A stretch of 64,000 nt of DNA from Escherichia coli. GTDB lineage: Bacteria > Pseudomonadota > Gammaproteobacteria > Enterobacterales > Enterobacteriaceae. The notes beneath the pieces are model-generated. The model saw only the letters and a program-made list of their open reading frames with translations. It searched no databases and was not told where the DNA came from. Below are positions 26,080 through 58,905 of the stretch, one piece after another. How positions within the stretch are numbered: the stretch's first letter is position 1; each line of letters starts with the position of its first letter. Where the stretch lies: assembly GCF_041886205.1 (NCBI RefSeq), contig NZ_CP169029.1. The stretch is one strand, 5' to 3'. A program made the position numbers and the translations under genes.

Positions 26080-27306
26080 ATGTCACCCTGTGAAAATGAC
26101 ACCCCTATAAACTGGAAACGAAACCTGATCGTCGCCTGGCTAGGCTGTTTTCTTACCGGTGCCGCCTTCAGTCTGGTAATGCCCTTCTTACCCCTCTACG
26201 TTGAGCAGCTTGGCGTTACCGGCCACTCCGCCCTGAATATGTGGTCCGGTATTGTCTTCAGCATTACATTTTTATTTTCGGCCATCGCCTCACCGTTTTG
26301 GGGTGGACTCGCCGACCGTAAAGGCCGAAAACTCATGCTATTACGCTCTGCTCTCGGCATGGGCATCGTGATGGTGTTGATGGGACTGGCACAAAATATC
26401 TGGCAGTTTTTGATCCTACGGGCGCTTCTTGGGTTACTTGGCGGATTTGTCCCCAACACTAATGCTCTTATCGCCACACAAGTACCGCGTAATAAAAGCG
26501 GCTGGGCGCTGGGTACGCTCTCCACAGGCGGCGTTAGTGGTGCGTTGCTCGGCCCAATGGCTGGCGGCCTGCTCGCCGATAGCTACGGCTTACGTCCGGT
26601 ATTCTTTATTACCGCCAGTGTGCTCATACTCTGCTTTTTCGTCACCCTGTTTTGCATCAGAGAAAAATTCCAGCCGGTCAGCAAAAAAGAGATGCTGCAC
26701 ATGCGGGAAGTGGTGACATCACTTAAAAACCCGAAACTGGTACTCAGCCTGTTTGTCACTACGTTAATCATCCAGGTGGCGACGGGCTCAATTGCCCCCA
26801 TTCTGACGCTGTATGTCCGCGAACTGGCGGGTAACGTCAGTAACGTCGCCTTTATCAGTGGCATGATCGCCTCGGTGCCAGGCGTGGCGGCTCTGCTAAG
26901 TGCACCACGACTCGGCAAACTTGGCGATCGAATCGGACCCGAAAAGATCCTGATTACAGCGCTGATCTTTTCTGTACTGCTGTTGATCCCAATGTCTTAC
27001 GTTCAGACGCCATTGCAACTTGGGATTTTACGTTTTTTGCTCGGTGCCGCCGATGGTGCACTACTCCCCGCCGTACAGACACTGTTGGTTTACAACTCGA
27101 GCAACCAGATCGCCGGGCGTATCTTCAGCTATAACCAATCGTTTCGTGATATTGGCAACGTTACCGGACCATTGATGGGAGCAGCGATTTCAGCGAACTA
27201 CGGTTTCAGAGCGGTATTTCTCGTCACCGCTGGCGTAGTGTTATTCAACGCAGTCTATTCATGGAACAGTCTACGTCGTCGTCGAATACCCCAGGTATCG
27301 AACTGA
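26080..27306 (+). CDS. mdtG: MFS multidrug efflux transporter
   Basis: 408-aa polytopic membrane ORF; conserved order. Confidence 0.9.
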
Positions 27307-28163: not shown

Positions 28164-32346
<4,183 letters not shown>

Positions 32347-43916: not shown

Positions 43917-44004
43917 GGTGAGGTGTCCGAGTGGCTGAAGGAGCACGCCTGGAAAGTGTGTATACGGCAACGTATCGGGGGTTCGAATCCCCCCCTCACC
44001 GCCA
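43917..44004 (+). tRNA. serX: tRNA-Ser (GGA anticodon)
   Basis: 88-nt GGTGAGGTGTCCGAGTGGCTGAAGG...GGTTCGAATCCCCCCCTCACCGCCA with class II long variable arm and T-loop GGTTCGAATCC. Confidence 0.95.
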
Positions 44005-44014
44005 GATTACAAGC

Positions 44015-44046
44015 GCATGTTATTGTTTAACATGCACTTTTTTATT
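44015..44046 (+). terminator. Intrinsic terminator after serX
   Basis: GCATGTTA-TTGTT-TAACATGC hairpin followed by TTTTTTATTT. Confidence 0.6.
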
Positions 44047-44153
44047 TATCCTTCCAGGCAGTATGCCACCGGGTATGCCATTTGAAATCGGTTTATATGC
44101 CCCACGATCATATCTTATCGGACAATTTCCGATCTTTGAGCATACTGGCAAAG

Positions 44154-52423: not shown

Positions 52424-55270
52424 TCAGAAGGTCACATTCAGTGTGGCCTGACCGTTATACCCTTCAGCGCTGCTGCCGCTGACGCTGTGGGCATAACCGG
52501 CCTGAACGCCCAGGGTGATATTTTCCCGGACACGGGCTTCCAGTCCGGCCTGCAGGTCCAGTGATGTGCCATTCTGTGAGGGAGAGAACGTCATCCCGCT
52601 GCCTGCAGTGGAAGTCCCCACACGCATATCTCCCCGGGAGCTGAAGGTGCGGATAACAGAAGGCTGTACCCACCAGTTCACCGGTAATTCACTCACACTG
52701 TGTTTTGCACTGTCACGCAGGGGGGCACGGGATGAGGTGCCTTCGCCAAAGGTCATATCGTTGTGGCTGCCCAGACGGAAACCGGCACGCACATGTTGTG
52801 CACTGCCATGCCCGAACTTCACATAACCGGCGTTGTCCTTACCGTCATCCAGGGAAAGTCCCTGCCAGGTATACTGTAGTTGTGGCTCCAGCATCAGGTT
52901 GTCAGTGATACTGAAGGGCAGACCGGTTTCCAGTGAACCCAGCCAGCCCCAACCCCGGGCGCGGAAGTCGTTATTGTCCGTTGACGCTTTCATGCTGTGG
53001 CGGGTTCCCAGGGCCACAATGTCAGCCCACAGTCCGGAGGCGTTGTGTATCAGATTCAGGTATCCGCCCAGGCTGCCGGCATCATCCCGGACCGTGCCGG
53101 CGCGGGAGCCGTCATCATCCTTAACATCAACGGAAGAATGGCCTGCAGCACCATACACCCCTGTCGTCAGAGACATACCGGCAACCTCTGTTCTGAGCAG
53201 GTCACCCTCCAGACGGACGAAGCCATAGCTGCCGCTGCTTTCCGGCGTGGCTCCACGGGCAATACCGCCGTTGTTATCGTGACCGAGATGACCGCCCTGA
53301 ATGCTGAGACGGACGCTGTTATTTTCACCGTTTACACCGGTCTGATGGCTGCGGGAGCCTGCCAGAATCCGGTCATAGTCCATTGCCTGTGTCAGCATGG
53401 ATGTATACAGGGGGACTTCAGCACGATAAGCATTTTCACTGCGCAGGTACCAGTCTTCATCGCTGTCACGGTTCAGGGTGTAGTTAAAGGCGCCGGCCTG
53501 AAGCGGGCGACTCAGGGCAAACGCACCTTCTTCTGTGGTGGCGCCATTCTGTGCATCCACAACCCGGATACCCTGTCCGGAGGTTGCCACCCCGAGGTTA
53601 CTGTTTCCGACATTTGTAAACGCAAGCCAGGTTTTGCCGGTTGCCTGACCACCATTAATCACCAGCTGGTCAGAGGTATTGCTGCCATCAAGGCGAACAC
53701 GCATATTGATGGTGCCACCCTGACCGGTGAGGTTACTGGTGGTCAGTTTATGGAACGTTACCGGGGAGTCGCCTTTTGCAACAGCACGGCTCAGCGCGGC
53801 ATCCGGTGTCGTCTGATTATCAAAGCGAATCTCCCCTGCGTTAACAATATCGCCGGTACTGACCACATCACCATTCAGTACCATGCTGGCACCTTTACTG
53901 AGCTGTGTTCTGCCACTCAGATTTCCCCCGGCAGCCAGCGTCAGTGTTCCACGATGTCCGACAGTGGTGTTGCCAGCCTGTCCTCCGGCATTAACCGTAA
54001 AGCTGCCGCCATTTTCCAGCAGCAGGCCGCTGGCCTGACCGGAGATACCATCAATACTGAACTTACCGCTGGCATTGGTCCCCTCAACAGTGGCACCACT
54101 GTCTGCTATCAGGGCACCACCGGATGTCATGGTGACATCTGTTGCCTTACCACCGGCAGACACTGCCAGGATACCGCCGTCATCCACCAGGGTATTCTGT
54201 GCTGAATGGCTCTCCAGTACATCCAGACGACCGCCGGATTCCAGAACAACACCGTCAGCCTTACCGTTTTCCACAGTGAAATTGCCCAGACGGTTGCTGC
54301 CGGTGACGGTTGCCGCCGTACTGGTGACCAGTGCGCCTCCCTGCTTCAGGGTGACATTCGTGGCTGTACCACCGGCGTTCACCTGCAGTTTGCCTTTCTG
54401 GTTAACGGTGGTGAAATCCGCCAGACCACCTTCCTTGACAATCTGCCAGCCGTCACTGTTTACAACCGTGTCAGAGGCTGTGCCTCCGTTGTGCACATAC
54501 TGGTAACCGCCATTCAGTGTGGTATCCAGCGCATGCCCGTGTACCGTCTGGTCGCCGCCGGCATAAACCACAGTGGTATTTGCTGTTCCTTCAACAGCCA
54601 CAATCTGACGACCATTTTTATTGATGGTGGTACGTACGGCATTTCCGCGAACAAACTGCCCGGTATCACCATTTTCTGCATCTGGTCCCCCTTCCGCGCC
54701 GGTATTCACAACCGTGTCGGTTGCCATTGCGCCGGATTTGACGGCCTGCCAGCCCTTCTCATTAATGACGGTACCCGTTGCAATCCCGCCTTCATGTACC
54801 CACTGCTCACCGCCGTTCAGAGTGGTATTCACTGCCTGCCCCTGAAGGCTCTGTCCGCCTCCGGCACTGATAACCGTGTCTGAAACGCTTCCTCCGGCAT
54901 TCACTCTCTGAAGACCACCACCGGTGACAGTAGTGTTGTTGGCGATACCGCCATTTTGTATCCATTGCCCGCCGGTATTGGCCTCGTTATCCGGCCCATA
55001 CTCCAGACCGGTACTGATGGTCATTCCGTTGGCCGTACCGAGAACAATCTGGTTGTCATGATTTGTCAGTGTTCCGCCGCTCACGGTTTCTCCCGCCTGT
55101 ACAACCGTGTCAGCAGCCAGTGCCGGGACTGATGTGACAGCAGCAAGAGACAGCGCAATCGCCACACCGGCGCGTTTTCCCCGTGAGCGGGCCAGTTCGG
55201 AGGCCACCACCAGGGTACCCGTAATGTGATTCCATACCAGCCTGTAGCTGGTGTTCAGATGTCGTTTCAT
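52424..55270 (-). CDS. flu: Antigen 43 self-associating autotransporter adhesin
   Basis: Track ORF trimmed to MKRHLNTSYRLVWNHITG (start codon checked); signal peptide, beta-helical passenger repeats, C-terminal beta-barrel ending GYNGQATLNVTF; ~948 aa, shorter than the 1039-aa K-12 form. Confidence 0.9.
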   Translation of the reverse strand: MKRHLNTSYRLVWNHITGTLVVASELARSRGKRAGVAIALSLAAVTSVPALAADTVVQAGETVSGGTLTNHDNQIVLGTANGMTISTGLEYGPDNEANTGGQWIQNGGIANNTTVTGGGLQRVNAGGSVSDTVISAGGGQSLQGQAVNTTLNGGEQWVHEGGIATGTVINEKGWQAVKSGAMATDTVVNTGAEGGPDAENGDTGQFVRGNAVRTTINKNGRQIVAVEGTANTTVVYAGGDQTVHGHALDTTLNGGYQYVHNGGTASDTVVNSDGWQIVKEGGLADFTTVNQKGKLQVNAGGTATNVTLKQGGALVTSTAATVTGSNRLGNFTVENGKADGVVLESGGRLDVLESHSAQNTLVDDGGILAVSAGGKATDVTMTSGGALIADSGATVEGTNASGKFSIDGISGQASGLLLENGGSFTVNAGGQAGNTTVGHRGTLTLAAGGNLSGRTQLSKGASMVLNGDVVSTGDIVNAGEIRFDNQTTPDAALSRAVAKGDSPVTFHKLTTSNLTGQGGTINMRVRLDGSNTSDQLVINGGQATGKTWLAFTNVGNSNLGVATSGQGIRVVDAQNGATTEEGAFALSRPLQAGAFNYTLNRDSDEDWYLRSENAYRAEVPLYTSMLTQAMDYDRILAGSRSHQTGVNGENNSVRLSIQGGHLGHDNNGGIARGATPESSGSYGFVRLEGDLLRTEVAGMSLTTGVYGAAGHSSVDVKDDDGSRAGTVRDDAGSLGGYLNLIHNASGLWADIVALGTRHSMKASTDNNDFRARGWGWLGSLETGLPFSITDNLMLEPQLQYTWQGLSLDDGKDNAGYVKFGHGSAQHVRAGFRLGSHNDMTFGEGTSSRAPLRDSAKHSVSELPVNWWVQPSVIRTFSSRGDMRVGTSTAGSGMTFSPSQNGTSLDLQAGLEARVRENITLGVQAGYAHSVSGSSAEGYNGQATLNVTF

Positions 55271-55487
55271 CAGCTTTTCCTTACAGAGGGTGAATAAAAA
55301 AGCCGGTACCCACAAATGTGGATACCGGCAGGTACAAAACAGCATGGTCAGATAAAGTGGTTTTTCCCGGGCATAAATGCTTCCCCTCTCTCATCCGCCA
55401 GAGAAGTATCAGTCCGTTGTGTGCAATTCCGTTCTGCATGATGAAGAGATTCAGCTGCCTTTTCGCAGACCATTAACCACTATAAAC

Positions 55488-55523
55488 GATCGATAGTAAC
55501 GATCAATACCTGTTTTATCGATC
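55488..55523. promoter_or_regulatory. Three-GATC Dam/OxyR phase-variation switch of agn43
   Basis: GATC at 55488, 55501 and 55520 within ...AACGATCGATAGTAACGATCAATACCTGTTTTATCGATCG..., ~220-250 bp upstream of the Ag43 start. Confidence 0.7.
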
Positions 55524-55642
55524 GTTTTATTCTATTAATAACAAGGCGGCCACGCAAGAGAAACAGGAGGGGTATGAGGTGTTTGTGTCATGTTTTCAGT
55601 TGGTTAACGCAATGTAATCAGGCATTTCCCCTGGCAGAGTGT

Positions 55643-56515
55643 TCAGAAGAAAATCCAGTTCCATACAGCGCGGGCAACAGAGACCACCGTGTCACGGACG
55701 GCACGCAGAACCGTACGGGCAACAGAGGCAACACAGACGCTCTCCGCCGTGTCAAATATCCGGTCCACCGCACCGGTAAACTGTTCACGGGCCTGAGCGC
55801 GGACAGATTCCGTGCGCAGCTCGTCCTGCAGGCGGGTCATCAGGGGACTGGCGGCATGGTCGGGAAGCGCTGTCATTAGCGCACTGACCAGCGTATCCAG
55901 CTCCCAGCCGGTGCGGGCCGATACGGCAACAACCGGATGTACGGGCCGGAACAGACGGAATACCGCATCTGTTTTTTCGCGAATGTTCTGTGCCTGTGCG
56001 GGAGAAGGCTGAATGCCGGCCATATCCCATTCATGGCAGGGCTCCGTTTTGTCGGCCTGCGTCACCACAAACAGCACCTGCTGATGTCCCCGGTGCAGGA
56101 TGTGTCGCCAGAAATACTCATCCACAGACAGGGCACGGTCATCGGCTTTAATCAGCCACAGTACCAGGTCAAGTTCAGGCAGAATGTCACGGTACAGGGC
56201 CTCATACTCTGCATCCCTGTCCCGGCTCTCGCCCACCCCGGGCAGGTCAGTGATAACCATGCTGTGACCGTGGCCACTCAGACGGAAGCGCCGTACTTCC
56301 CGGGTGCCGGCGTGAACATCACTGACCGGGGTGACCTCCCCCTGAAACAGTGCATTACAGAGTGAGGATTTACCGGCCCCGCTTTTACCCATAATGCCAA
56401 TCACGGGTTCGTGACGGGTGAGTTTGCGCAGATGTTCCAGGATGTGACGGGAAAGTGAGTAAGGCAGGGAGGAGAGCGGTTTTTCAATTGCCTCAATGGC
56501 ATCAGACGGATTCAT
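55643..56515 (-). CDS. yeeP: YeeP/YkfA/YfjP-family GTPase
   Basis: Walker A GKSGAGKSS and DLPG motif; trimmed to MNPSDAIEAIEKPL (start codon checked); upstream of Ag43 as in CP4-44. Confidence 0.8.
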   Translation of the reverse strand: MNPSDAIEAIEKPLSSLPYSLSRHILEHLRKLTRHEPVIGIMGKSGAGKSSLCNALFQGEVTPVSDVHAGTREVRRFRLSGHGHSMVITDLPGVGESRDRDAEYEALYRDILPELDLVLWLIKADDRALSVDEYFWRHILHRGHQQVLFVVTQADKTEPCHEWDMAGIQPSPAQAQNIREKTDAVFRLFRPVHPVVAVSARTGWELDTLVSALMTALPDHAASPLMTRLQDELRTESVRAQAREQFTGAVDRIFDTAESVCVASVARTVLRAVRDTVVSVARAVWNWIFF

Positions 56516-57525: not shown

Positions 57526-58905
57526 TCAGTCATAAAATTTATTTTTGCCTTTTGACGTCATGAGAAGGAAATATGAAGGGTGACTCTTTATTTCTGAAGA
57601 GTGGCTTGTTATACTAAAAACCTCTTTTAGAATCGTAAAGGCTCCTGTAGCCAACGACACTGGATTTGGTGCCCCAATAAAACCTATCAATGATGGCGCA
57701 ATGTTAAGAAAAAGTTCTTTATTACTTTTCCGCTTATAGGTCTGTATTTTTTGCTCAATATCGGTCAATCCTTCATCCCATATGCGCTCGACAAAATGCT
57801 GATTTATCAGCTGCCTCTTATATGGGTCACTTTCTGCTTCTATGTCATACGCAGCTTCACGTAGCACAGAGCGGAAGGCATTAAAACTCGATTCGTAGTC
57901 AGTTCTAATTTTGTAGAGTTCACTTGGAGTAAGCCCCTCTAGAAATGGAACGTCAATAGAGAGTTTAACCCTCTGAACTTCATTCCTTTGATCCAGTTTA
58001 CGAAGAATTTCTCCATGAAATGGGCAATATGCGCCCAGGGACGCTCTGCATGAATGCGCTTGGTTAAGATCAGTAATAAGGTTTTTATAATGAAAGAGAA
58101 CTGTACGATTTTTTGCTCCCTGCACCCACCGTTCATAACTTTTTTTTCCGCTATGCTTTCCCATGACAATTTCCATAGACATGGTACCATCATCATTATC
58201 AATGGCATTATTTATATGTTGATACATATATCCATTTGTATACGAGCTTTCGCAGCCTTTAATTTTCAACATAATTTCATTCGTTAAAACATTTCTGTTT
58301 AACAACCGAATTTTATTTGTGTTGCCCAGACGTTCTATATTCTGTACGGATAGTCTACTTTCATACAGACGGGCAATATTAGGGGGGAGATATCGAAATA
58401 GGAAATTAGTATCAGAGTTATCTTCTAAAATTCCATTAGCTCTCTCCGAATCTTTAATAGAGGATTCTCTTCGTACAAAAACGATAAACTCTCCACGGAT
58501 AAGATCAAAGTTTTCTTTAGCAAACCTGATAAACCTAGCAATTTCCTTCCTGAGATGTTCAACCTTCTCTTTGCTATCGCTTTCAATAAATTTTTCAACT
58601 ACGTTTTCTGATAGATTTACCCTGTATCGTAGGCTCAATGAATATAGAACGTCATCAAGAATGACTCTGTCCATTGAAAACAAACCACTCTTATACCTTT
58701 CAATATTACGATTCCCCGCCATGTAAACATTCAGCCGGGACTCCTGTACAGAATTTGTTTGTTCGATAATGAATGAATCTATCCTTTTATTATATTCAGC
58801 TAATTCAACTAGCAATTCGTTCAATCCGATATTTTCATATTCCTGTTCTAAAAGTCGATCAACCCAAAAAAGGCTTTCTGTGAGCGCATAGAGGTTGTTG
58901 TACAT
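57526..58905 (-). CDS. Hypothetical protein, 459 aa, unknown function
   Basis: Long ORF in the most AT-rich stretch of the window; K/E/N/I-rich; no Walker A or nuclease motif recognised. Confidence 0.7.
   Translation of the reverse strand: MYNNLYALTESLFWVDRLLEQEYENIGLNELLVELAEYNKRIDSFIIEQTNSVQESRLNVYMAGNRNIERYKSGLFSMDRVILDDVLYSLSLRYRVNLSENVVEKFIESDSKEKVEHLRKEIARFIRFAKENFDLIRGEFIVFVRRESSIKDSERANGILEDNSDTNFLFRYLPPNIARLYESRLSVQNIERLGNTNKIRLLNRNVLTNEIMLKIKGCESSYTNGYMYQHINNAIDNDDGTMSMEIVMGKHSGKKSYERWVQGAKNRTVLFHYKNLITDLNQAHSCRASLGAYCPFHGEILRKLDQRNEVQRVKLSIDVPFLEGLTPSELYKIRTDYESSFNAFRSVLREAAYDIEAESDPYKRQLINQHFVERIWDEGLTDIEQKIQTYKRKSNKELFLNIAPSLIGFIGAPNPVSLATGAFTILKEVFSITSHSSEIKSHPSYFLLMTSKGKNKFYD

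Follow-up and report, generated by a model that had tools for sequence, protein, structure and literature searches.

The agn43 phase switch and the Ag43 family

The agn43 gene of Escherichia coli, named flu in K-12, encodes Antigen 43 (Ag43), an adhesin for self-aggregation. It is controlled by a Dam/OxyR mechanism (PMC3764049, PMC4872104, PMC13337833). The switch is recognized by alternative methylation of its GATC sites in ON and OFF cells and by the behavior of mutants, in that dam mutants are locked OFF while oxyR mutants are locked ON (PMC2909390, PMC3764049, PMC13337833). In strain EC958, loss of oxyR derepresses agn43 121-fold, and IrmA is derepressed in oxyR mutants of CFT073 and 83972 (PMC4807369). 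The same study (Moriel et al. 2016) described agn43, yeeR and irmA as an operon and, by 5'RACE in EC958, placed the transcription start 228 bp from the ATG.

Ag43 proteins are grouped by the modules of which they are composed. Subfamily SF-II is defined by the EJ2-BL2-AC module and covers classes C2, C4, C5 and C6 (PMC6668479, PMC10058404), and the combination of an SL1 stem with this module has already been published (PMC6668479, PMC10058404, PMC8993888). Class C6, with an SL1a stem and EJ2-BL2-AC, is reported to be the most prevalent Ag43 class at 36.5% (Ageorges et al. 2023, PMC10058404). The label C4 has been given to the UTI89 protein (Vo et al. 2022, PMC8993888), which is 96% identical to the one described here and for which aggregation data are available (PMC8993888).

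The locus described below lies in a 64-kb stretch of E. coli DNA (the window). It is very probably a standard, intact agn43 of the short 948-aa subfamily, for which a Dam/OxyR switch like that of K-12 is expected. Both the gene and its switch type are already known, and there is nothing new in the gene or its sequence.

Promoter and GATC triad

The coding sequence occupies 52424..55270 on the minus strand, with the ATG at 55270, the stop at 52424 and a ribosome-binding site, AAGGA, 7 nt 5' of the ATG (55278..55282, minus strand; read from the sequence and conserved in a six-sequence leader alignment). Upstream, the stop codon of a YeeP-like gene delimits a regulatory region of 372 bp. Within this region, the -10 hexamer TAGAAT (55529..55534, minus strand) is shared without change by 12 of the 13 alleles compared; ET791 has TAGAAC. 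A -35 hexamer, TTGCGT (55552..55557, minus strand), is predicted 17 bp away, where K-12 has TTGTCC, and this position is held in both the six-sequence alignment and the 13-allele comparison.

The operator (55488..55523, minus strand) contains three GATCs, the predicted Dam targets, which overlap the predicted site of the OxyR repressor. In gene orientation these are GATC-I (55523-55520), GATC-II (55504-55501) and GATC-III (55491-55488); on the plus strand the tetramers start at 55488, 55501 and 55520, with the 13 and 19 bp spacing that the first-pass annotation had reported. They lie 5, 24 and 37 bp past the -10 hexamer, spaced 19 and then 13 bp in the order of K-12 flu. The -10 hexamer, the start context AAAACGATC and the 19/13 triad are all identical to those of K-12. 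The triads of K-12, in which the switch was worked out experimentally, and of 11 other alleles, including CFT073 a and b, UTI89 and O157, are in register with that of the window. Spacing and position are kept in 12 of 13 alleles and in both leader types, and in clone D i14 GATT replaces GATC-I. The concern that the GATCs might fall outside the OxyR-binding region was accordingly not borne out, the triad being in register with the K-12 sites.

A MAFFT pairwise alignment of the leaders had paired GATC-III of the window with GATC-II of K-12, which would imply a 13-bp deletion. The six-sequence alignment and anchoring on the -10 hexamer place the triads in register with no indel, and this deletion was ruled out.

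The predicted transcription start is the G of GATC-I or a base adjoining it. In K-12, the annotated 5' end of IsrC coincides with the corresponding G, and in the Ag43a-type leader of CFT073, GATC-I and the ATG are 228 bp apart, which is the published 5'RACE distance. A consensus scan returned one promoter-like hit only, TTGATC-16-TATAGT (55506-55479). It overlaps GATC-II and GATC-III and is taken to be a by-product of the AT-rich operator, while TTGCGT-17-TAGAAT is conserved and agrees with both the K-12 IsrC 5' end and the 5'RACE distance.

In the proposed mechanism, agn43 would be transcribed from GATC-I, directly past the -10 hexamer, with all three GATCs in the first 36 transcribed bases. 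In the OFF state, OxyR bound to unmethylated GATCs would block transcription and shield the sites from Dam. In the ON state, Dam-methylated GATCs would exclude OxyR. This competition would be reopened at each round of replication, producing phase variation that is heritable and reversible. Neither dam nor oxyR lies within the window; both are core genes of E. coli.

A variant of the predicted OxyR operator

The operator of the window departs from that of K-12 between GATC-I and GATC-II, where the CTAT of K-12 is replaced by AACA. When the OxyR consensus ATAGnTnnnAnCTAT-N7-ATAGnTnnnAnCTAT is laid over the K-12 register, K-12 scores 14/20 and the window 10/20 (hand count), because AACA stands in for CTAT. 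A scan with this consensus on both strands gave several equal registers of 13/20 in the window and did not locate the site. OxyR binding is inferred here, since the operator belongs to the class without the K-12 CTAT between GATC-I and GATC-II. Among the strains in which OxyR control has been shown directly, the two that were checked, K-12 and CFT073, have the other leader type. Our literature search returned no experiments on the operator variant of the window, and the EC958 methylome paper (PMC4659465) makes no locus-specific statement on the agn43 GATCs.

The second departure is a T in place of the usual C directly 5' of GATC-II, giving TTGATC where UTI89, EC67, O157 and most others have TCGATC. 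An exact match to the 91-bp promoter-operator is found in only 153 complete-genome records. In comparison to UTI89 there is one further operator substitution, ACT for ACC before GATC-III.

These differences bear on the description of the switch as intact in the first-pass annotation, which holds at the level of sequence but with an OxyR site that is only predicted and with 9 bp between GATC-I and GATC-II that differ from K-12. They also provide the basis for an alternative to a K-12-like switch, namely a switch that keeps the K-12 form but works differently, with weaker OxyR binding that would bias the gene toward ON or change the switching rate. The first OxyR half-site differs from that of K-12 and accounts for the lower consensus count, the C to T change beside GATC-II breaks the ATCGATCG...CGATCGAT symmetry, and the GATT of clone D i14 at GATC-I provides a natural example of operator erosion. 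However, the second half-site, in the region of GATC-II and GATC-III, is nearly as in K-12, and consensus counts predict OxyR affinity poorly, K-12 itself reaching just 14/20. Moreover, the AAAACAGGT spacer variant is the E. coli majority form and the triad is conserved over diverged copies, which points to purifying selection that maintains a working switch. We therefore regard altered behavior of this copy as improbable, and a K-12-like switch remains the preferred reading.

Almost all mechanistic studies have used the K-12 and CFT073 operators. A broader form of the idea is unlikely, if conceivable: the majority operator class, which lacks CTAT and whose leader is longer by about 30 nt, may switch at a rate or with a bias other than that of the K-12 paradigm, the C to T copy of the window differing again. 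If this were true, most natural agn43 genes could deviate from K-12 switching through OxyR affinity or Dam access.

A second alternative is that the triad arose by chance and that agn43 is constitutive or silent. The window contains 242 GATCs, and under uniform placement about 2 clusters of three in 36 bp are expected; 2 are observed, the other at 31245-31263 inside a coding ORF. Because three GATCs within 36 bp are at chance level in 64 kb, the significance of the triad comes from homology. The triad is meaningful because it sits right after the -10 hexamer and lines up with the K-12 operator. Exact 19/13 spacing is seen a single time in the window, where about 0.007 cases are expected [242 x (242/64000)^2 x 2], and spacing and -10 position are the same in 12 of 13 alleles while the flanking leader is nearly unalignable. 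A chance origin is thus exceedingly improbable.

Leader RNA and terminator

The 5' leader RNA (55289..55525, minus strand) is a homologue of IsrC/IS102, the small RNA in the leader of K-12 flu. Rfam family RF00124 matches it on the agn43 strand over the full model (1-206/206) with 71.2 bits, the gathering score being 46. From GATC-I to the ATG the leader measures 253 nt in the window compared to 222 nt in K-12, and the middle parts of the two are unalignable. Of 5426 complete E. coli genomes, approximately 3446 have the window leader type; the type found in K-12 is in the minority.

Just 5' of the ribosome-binding site is an intrinsic-terminator-like hairpin (55292..55329, minus strand) with a stem of 12 bp, of which 8 are G-C pairs, and a loop of 4, followed by TTTTTTATTC. 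This hairpin is the best-conserved part of the leader in all alleles, and K-12 has the same hairpin and ribosome-binding site. In K-12, the hairpin attenuates read-through. The window transcript would likewise begin with an IsrC/IS102-type leader of about 250 nt that closes with the terminator hairpin ahead of the ribosome-binding site.

Length and domains of the protein

Identification of the gene as an Ag43 allele, as first proposed from the sequence, is well supported. NF033177, the NCBIfam equivalog for Ag43/Cah, aligns residues 1-948 with profile positions 1-948/948 and scores 1973.8 bits where the cutoff is 1200 bits; the profile itself is 948 positions long. Pfam matches comprise ESPR (aa 6-49), seven to eight AIDA repeats (aa 100-455), AC_1 (aa 488-599) and the Autotransporter beta-domain (aa 673-924). 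By these matches the type Va modular layout is present, from an ESPR signal peptide through an AIDA-repeat beta-helix passenger and a type 1 autochaperone to a C-terminal beta-barrel. The product would thus be a type Va self-associating autotransporter in which ESPR signal peptide, beta-helical passenger, autochaperone and beta-barrel follow one another.

The passenger (aa 52-613) is nearly identical to the solved structure 7KO9. Self-association, cell aggregation and alpha/beta processing would be expected of the window protein from this near-identity and from the published data on Ag43-UTI89. Reading PDB 7KO9 as the structure of EDL933 Cah was considered and dropped; the stem of the window protein is 97% identical to that of UTI89 but 73% identical to that of O157 Cah.

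The lengths given by the first-pass annotation, about 948 aa for this protein and 1039 aa for K-12 Flu, are both right; K-12 flu has 3120 bp, and the window protein is 91 aa shorter. The ORF listing gives 973 aa for agn43 because an in-frame ATG at 55345, inside the leader, precedes the true start. The N-terminus of the window protein is MKRHLNT, and the RefSeq homologues and the NCBIfam profile share that start. Therefore, with K-12 flu at 1039 aa, the 91-aa gap is real and a start-codon misassignment, which had been raised as a possible source of the shorter length, is excluded. A reading of the 948-aa product as the outcome of deletion or decay in a 1039-aa gene, or of a mis-called start, would fit the 91-aa shortfall and the adjoining yeeR pseudogene but is almost certainly wrong, given the end-to-end match to a curated profile of 948 positions, the hundreds of RefSeq "Ag43/Cah family" genes of 2847 bp, the crystal structure of a near-identical passenger, the presence at the called start of both an ESPR signal peptide and a ribosome-binding site, and a divergent region that is 36-69% identical to K-12 rather than missing and thus a replaced module.

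Modular architecture and named relatives

The site of divergence becomes evident when identity is calculated by segment, with the signal peptide taken as 1-52, the stem (SL) as 53-340, the elbow, bottom and autochaperone (EJ-BL-AC) as 341-613, and the linker and barrel as 614-948. Over the whole protein, the window Ag43 is identical to EC67 at 941/948 positions, to UTI89 at 907/948 and to K-12 at 780/948. By module, identity to K-12 is 88% in SL, 65% in EJ, 36% in BL, 69% in AC and 97% in the barrel, while identity to UTI89 is 95-99% across SL-EJ-BL-AC. In the EJ-BL-AC segment, identity is 95-99% to UTI89 and O157 Cah compared to 65/36/69% to K-12 and CFT073 Ag43b. In the stem, identity decreases from UTI89 (97%) through strain 7/2 (92%), K-12 (88%) and O157 Cah (73%) to CFT073 Ag43b (64%).

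An alignment with K-12 flu and other alleles had been proposed as a means of locating a deletion. The alignment contains no deletion; the protein is shorter and its passenger is indeed altered, as the first-pass annotation suggested, but by a module swap in which SF-II EJ2-BL2-AC stands in place of the corresponding part of a K-12-like protein. The D551/P552 cleavage site of K-12 Flu (b2000) lies within the replaced segment.

By this comparison, the window Ag43 is a member of the short subfamily SF-II, with the EJ2-BL2-AC module and a stem of the K-12/UTI89 type. The SL1-type stem places it outside class C2 and fits C4 or C6, in a comparison with UTI89, strain 7/2, K-12, O157 Cah and CFT073 Ag43b. 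Both defining features of class C6, a K-12-like stem and the short module, are present (PMC10058404). The UTI89 and EC67 accessions are absent from the supplements of that paper.

UTI89 Ag43 (UTI89_C1139 / WP_000820443.1; passenger PDB 7KO9) also has 948 aa. The two loci share the leader type, three GATCs at the same positions and the same upstream GTPase gene, and agn43 lies on a genomic island in both genomes. The barrel segment, however, is only 93% identical, and the last 70 residues of the barrel are 100% K-12-like in the window compared to 85% in UTI89. The Cah protein of O157:H7 EHEC (949 aa, class C2) has the same leader type and GATC triad, and its short EJ2-BL2-AC is 95-96% identical to that of the window. 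Its stem differs, with 73% identity and a 1-aa indel, and because the stem is the self-association surface, the two proteins are in different classes.

Prevalence

NCBI already lists the exact protein, under the name "autotransporter adhesin Ag43", for 17 contigs; the cluster to which it belongs at 90% identity has 26,437 members. Leader and coding sequence are nucleotide-identical in several draft assemblies. The 948-aa Ag43 is no rarer than the 1039-aa form. Among sequenced E. coli, the textbook K-12 protein of 1039 aa and its leader are the less frequent forms, and therefore K-12 switch parameters need not hold for the operator class of the window. Beyond correct annotation, the locus has little significance. 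It is best annotated as an intact, probably phase-variable, short SF-II (UTI89-like) agn43 on an island by tRNA-Ser(GGA), with a yeeR pseudogene and then an intact irmA downstream of it.

Neighboring genes and genomic island

The genes agn43, yeeR-like and irmA are co-linear on the minus strand, with the frames of agn43 and irmA intact and that of yeeR interrupted. The yeeR-like gene (49787..52303, minus strand), second in the operon, carries a TGG to TAG change at codon 261 (51521-51523). Its orthologues in EC67 and CFT073 are intact at 838 aa with TGG at this codon, and the TAG is also present in one draft assembly. The third gene, irmA (49256..49711, minus strand), encodes a protein identical to CFT073 IrmA at 150/151 aa.

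Upstream of agn43, the YeeP-like GTPase gene (55643..56515, minus strand) is an ORF corresponding to the 873-bp "GTPase family protein" of RefSeq neighbors, with weak matches to NCBIfam GTPase domains. The agn43 gene is on a genomic island that is inserted at tRNA-Ser(GGA) and is similar to the UPEC serX islands. The core flank of the window matches E. coli chromosomes at 100% identity.

The predicted Dam/OxyR switch

Upstream of agn43, on the minus strand, every sequence element of the Dam/OxyR switch is present and in register. The first-pass annotation had described a short Antigen 43 (Ag43) allele with an intact three-GATC switch at 52424-55642; this observation is confirmed and its interpretation supported. 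At agn43, OxyR bound to one site overlapping three GATCs represses the gene and protects these GATCs from Dam, their methylation abolishes OxyR binding, and replication produces hemimethylated DNA on which OxyR and Dam compete anew (PMC3764049, PMC4872104, PMC13337833). OxyR also represses agn43 in UPEC strains, with 121-fold derepression of the gene in EC958 oxyR, and IrmA is derepressed in oxyR mutants of CFT073 and 83972 (PMC4807369). We infer OxyR binding and the methylation states at the agn43 gene of the window.

The three GATC tetramers have their first bases at 55488, 55501 and 55520, which reproduces the positions and the 13- and 19-bp spacing first reported. In gene orientation (GATC-I 55523-55520, GATC-II 55504-55501, GATC-III 55491-55488) they lie 5, 24 and 37 bp past a TAGAAT hexamer, spaced 19 and then 13 bp, and in the allele comparison they are in register with the K-12 flu operator. 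As a mere cluster, the triad is not beyond chance: the window holds 242 GATCs, and about 2 triplets within 36 bp are expected per 64 kb under random placement, compared to 2 observed, the second at 31245-31263 inside a 517-aa ORF. As a homologous feature, the triad is beyond chance. The window has a single instance of the 19/13 pattern (chance expectation about 0.007, by our own estimate), and 11 of the 12 other alleles compared share the identical geometry (K-12 flu, CFT073 Ag43a and Ag43b, UTI89, O157 cah, 7/2, EC67, 23CRST050, 2021CK-01784, 13P484A and ET791), which cover two leader types whose mid-leader is almost unalignable between types.

The lone exception is the operator of clone D i14 (NC_017652.1, 4910580-4911270), where GATT stands for GATC-I and two Dam sites are left. 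An intact triad is thus not universal, and this strain could serve as a natural test of the number of sites that the switch needs. Elsewhere in the window, the three GATC sites of the second triplet, 9 bp apart (31245-31266), lie inside an ORF at 30700-32253 on the minus strand, and four sites about 20 bp apart (26926-26988) lie inside an ORF at 26080-27306 on the plus strand; both clusters are at chance level at the GATC density of the window.

Between GATC-I and GATC-II, the leader class of the window has ATAAAACAGGTAT where K-12 has ATATCTATTTTAT, and the CTAT consensus element is therefore lost in this class. In the K-12 register, 14/20 positions match the OxyR consensus in K-12 compared to 10/20 in the window (the latter a hand count). 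A T also replaces C just 5′ of GATC-II in the window and in strain 7/2. The 91-bp promoter-operator has exact matches in 153 complete-genome records, while the majority of copies show 90-95% identity. Among the alleles backed by direct genetic evidence, those whose leaders were compared (K-12 and CFT073 a and b) are of the other leader type. The triad is strictly conserved among diverged copies of the majority leader class, which argues that the switch works, and switching rates in the operator class of the window could differ from those of K-12.

Predicted promoter and leader RNA

Upstream of GATC-I, TTGCGT (55557-55552, minus strand) is separated by a 17-bp spacer from TAGAAT (55534-55529, minus strand), and the aligned positions of K-12 flu carry TTGTCC and TAGAAT, also 17 bp apart. 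The annotated IsrC small RNA of K-12 has its 5′ end on the G of GATC-I and its 3′ end past the leader terminator. Mapping in EC958 put the agn43 transcription start 228 bp from the ATG (PMC4807369); the same distance separates GATC-I from the ATG in the leader used for comparison, that of the CFT073 Ag43a type. Homology predicts a transcription start at about 55523-55525 in the window, which would place the three GATCs within the first 36 bases of the transcript. The Rfam model RF00124 (IS102, which is IsrC) matches 55525-55289 at full length with 71.2 bits (gathering score 46). A G+C-rich 12-bp hairpin with a T run behind it (55329-55292, minus strand) lies just 5′ of the ribosome-binding site and is the best conserved leader stretch in all alleles compared.

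Of 5426 complete E. coli genomes, 3446 carry the leader type of the window at a query coverage of at least 80%. K-12 strains match only its last ~64 nt, which makes the K-12 leader the minority form. Strain 7/2 carries a 1039-aa agn43 behind a leader called identical or 99.5% identical to that of the window, so leader and passenger types assort or recombine independently, and the recombination joint in 7/2 must lie inside the coding sequence. At this long-type locus (NZ_CP023820.1, 4001-7492), the leader shares the T next to GATC-II. The GATC-II/GATC-III region (55487-55505, minus strand) forms a short hairpin, paired in the Rfam IS102 model and flagged by a terminator scan, and the C-to-T change in the window weakens its stem relative to other alleles.

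The reading frame and its product

The agn43 ORF runs from an ATG at 55270 to a stop at 52424 (minus strand) and encodes 948 aa beginning MKRHLNTSYRLVWNH, with a ribosome-binding site (AAGGA, 55282-55278, minus strand) read from the sequence 5′ of the ATG. The length first given, shorter than the 1039 aa of K-12 Flu, holds, and the start codon was correctly called. A mechanical ORF list gives 973 aa, with an in-frame ATG at 55345 and no stop between. This ATG is within the leader, 5′ of the terminator hairpin, and every RefSeq homologue and the curated NCBIfam profile start with MKRHLNT. The upstream GTPase gene ends in a stop codon that begins at 55643, leaving a 372-bp intergenic region, and the interval originally annotated is exactly this region plus the coding sequence.

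The product matches NCBIfam NF033177 (“Ag43/Cah family autotransporter adhesin”) with 1973.8 bits (cutoff 1200) over residues 1-948, and the profile is itself 948 positions long. Pfam places ESPR at aa 6-49, seven to eight AIDA repeats at aa 100-455, AC_1 at aa 488-599 and the autotransporter beta-domain at aa 673-924. The exact protein is present in NCBI on 17 contigs (for example EEZ9634423.1, “autotransporter adhesin Ag43”), and it belongs to a 90%-identity cluster of 26,437 proteins, with 948 aa in most members listed. Six draft assemblies carry the coding sequence and the 372-bp leader either unchanged or with 1-2 nt differences. Among complete genomes, strain EC67 matches best (99.1% DNA identity, 941/948 aa), and all seven amino acid differences are in the barrel. 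The locus is already known in every respect examined.

Origin of the short passenger

Identity to K-12 varies along the protein, from 83% in the signal peptide (aa 1-52) and 88% in the stem (aa 53-340) to 65% in the elbow (aa 341-425), 36% in the bottom (aa 426-500), 69% in the autochaperone region (aa 501-613) and 97% in the linker and barrel (aa 614-948). All gaps fall between aa 404-528 of the window protein and aa 404-619 of K-12. The largest passes over K-12 aa 544-602, where the alignment places the D551/P552 alpha/beta cleavage site of K-12. The elbow-bottom-autochaperone segments are 95-99% identical to those of UTI89 Ag43 (948 aa; stem 97%) and 95-96% identical to those of O157 Cah (949 aa; stem only 73%). 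The allele is therefore a mosaic of a K-12/UTI89-type stem, a short elbow-bottom-autochaperone module (EJ2-BL2-AC) and a largely K-12-like barrel.

Such a mosaic fits exactly the domain shuffling of Ag43 described by Ageorges et al., in which BL2 has 90 aa compared to 143 aa for BL1, the short subfamily SF-II comprises classes C2, C4, C5 and C6, and C6 (SL1a plus EJ2-BL2) is the commonest Ag43 class at 36.5% (PMC6668479, PMC10058404). UTI89 Ag43 belongs to C4 according to Vo et al., who solved the passenger structure (PMC8993888). Passenger aa 52-613 aligns to PDB 7KO9 with almost no mismatch. The 948-aa length therefore reflects a known alternative module and is neither a deletion nor a decay product. 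The passenger does differ from K-12, as first proposed (36-69% identity in the elbow-bottom-autochaperone segments), but the deletion expected there gives way to the published module.

Island, operon and neighbors

The core section of the window, where the match annotation names flg, murJ and mdtH, shows 100% identity to E. coli chromosomes. A complete tRNA-Ser(GGA) gene (43917-44004, plus strand), taken to be serX from the neighboring core genes, is the island start. It is directly abutted (44005-45000) by a toxin-antitoxin/DUF4942 island end, not an integrase, and the 20 kb of island within the window shows no integrase. RadC/YeeS, irmA, yeeR, agn43 and the GTPase gene follow on the minus strand, then a type I restriction-modification M and S pair on the plus strand, an arrangement similar to that of the CFT073 and UTI89 serX islands. 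Only Ag43, RadC, HsdM and HsdS have NCBIfam matches among the island genes; the names of most others are the RefSeq annotation of homologous loci.

The M subunit ORF (60134-62572, plus strand) is unusually long at 812 aa, of which the HsdM model covers only aa 71-444. The S subunit (62566-63921, plus strand) lies 3′ of it, and no R subunit is seen up to the window end. Between the M subunit ORF and the GTPase gene is a 459-aa ORF (57526-58905, minus strand) without an NCBIfam match.

The published agn43-yeeR-irmA operon is present. Directly downstream of agn43, the yeeR-like gene (49787-52303, minus strand) is split by a nonsense codon, TGG to TAG at codon 261 (51521-51523), while the EC67 and CFT073 orthologues are intact at 838 aa. 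The irmA gene (interleukin-receptor mimic protein A; 49256-49711, minus strand) is intact, and its product, which has no matching model in NCBIfam, is identical to CFT073 IrmA at 150/151 aa. Because these genes form a published operon, the TAG might be polar on irmA. The same TAG occurs in draft assembly GCA_026227965.1, which has an identical agn43.
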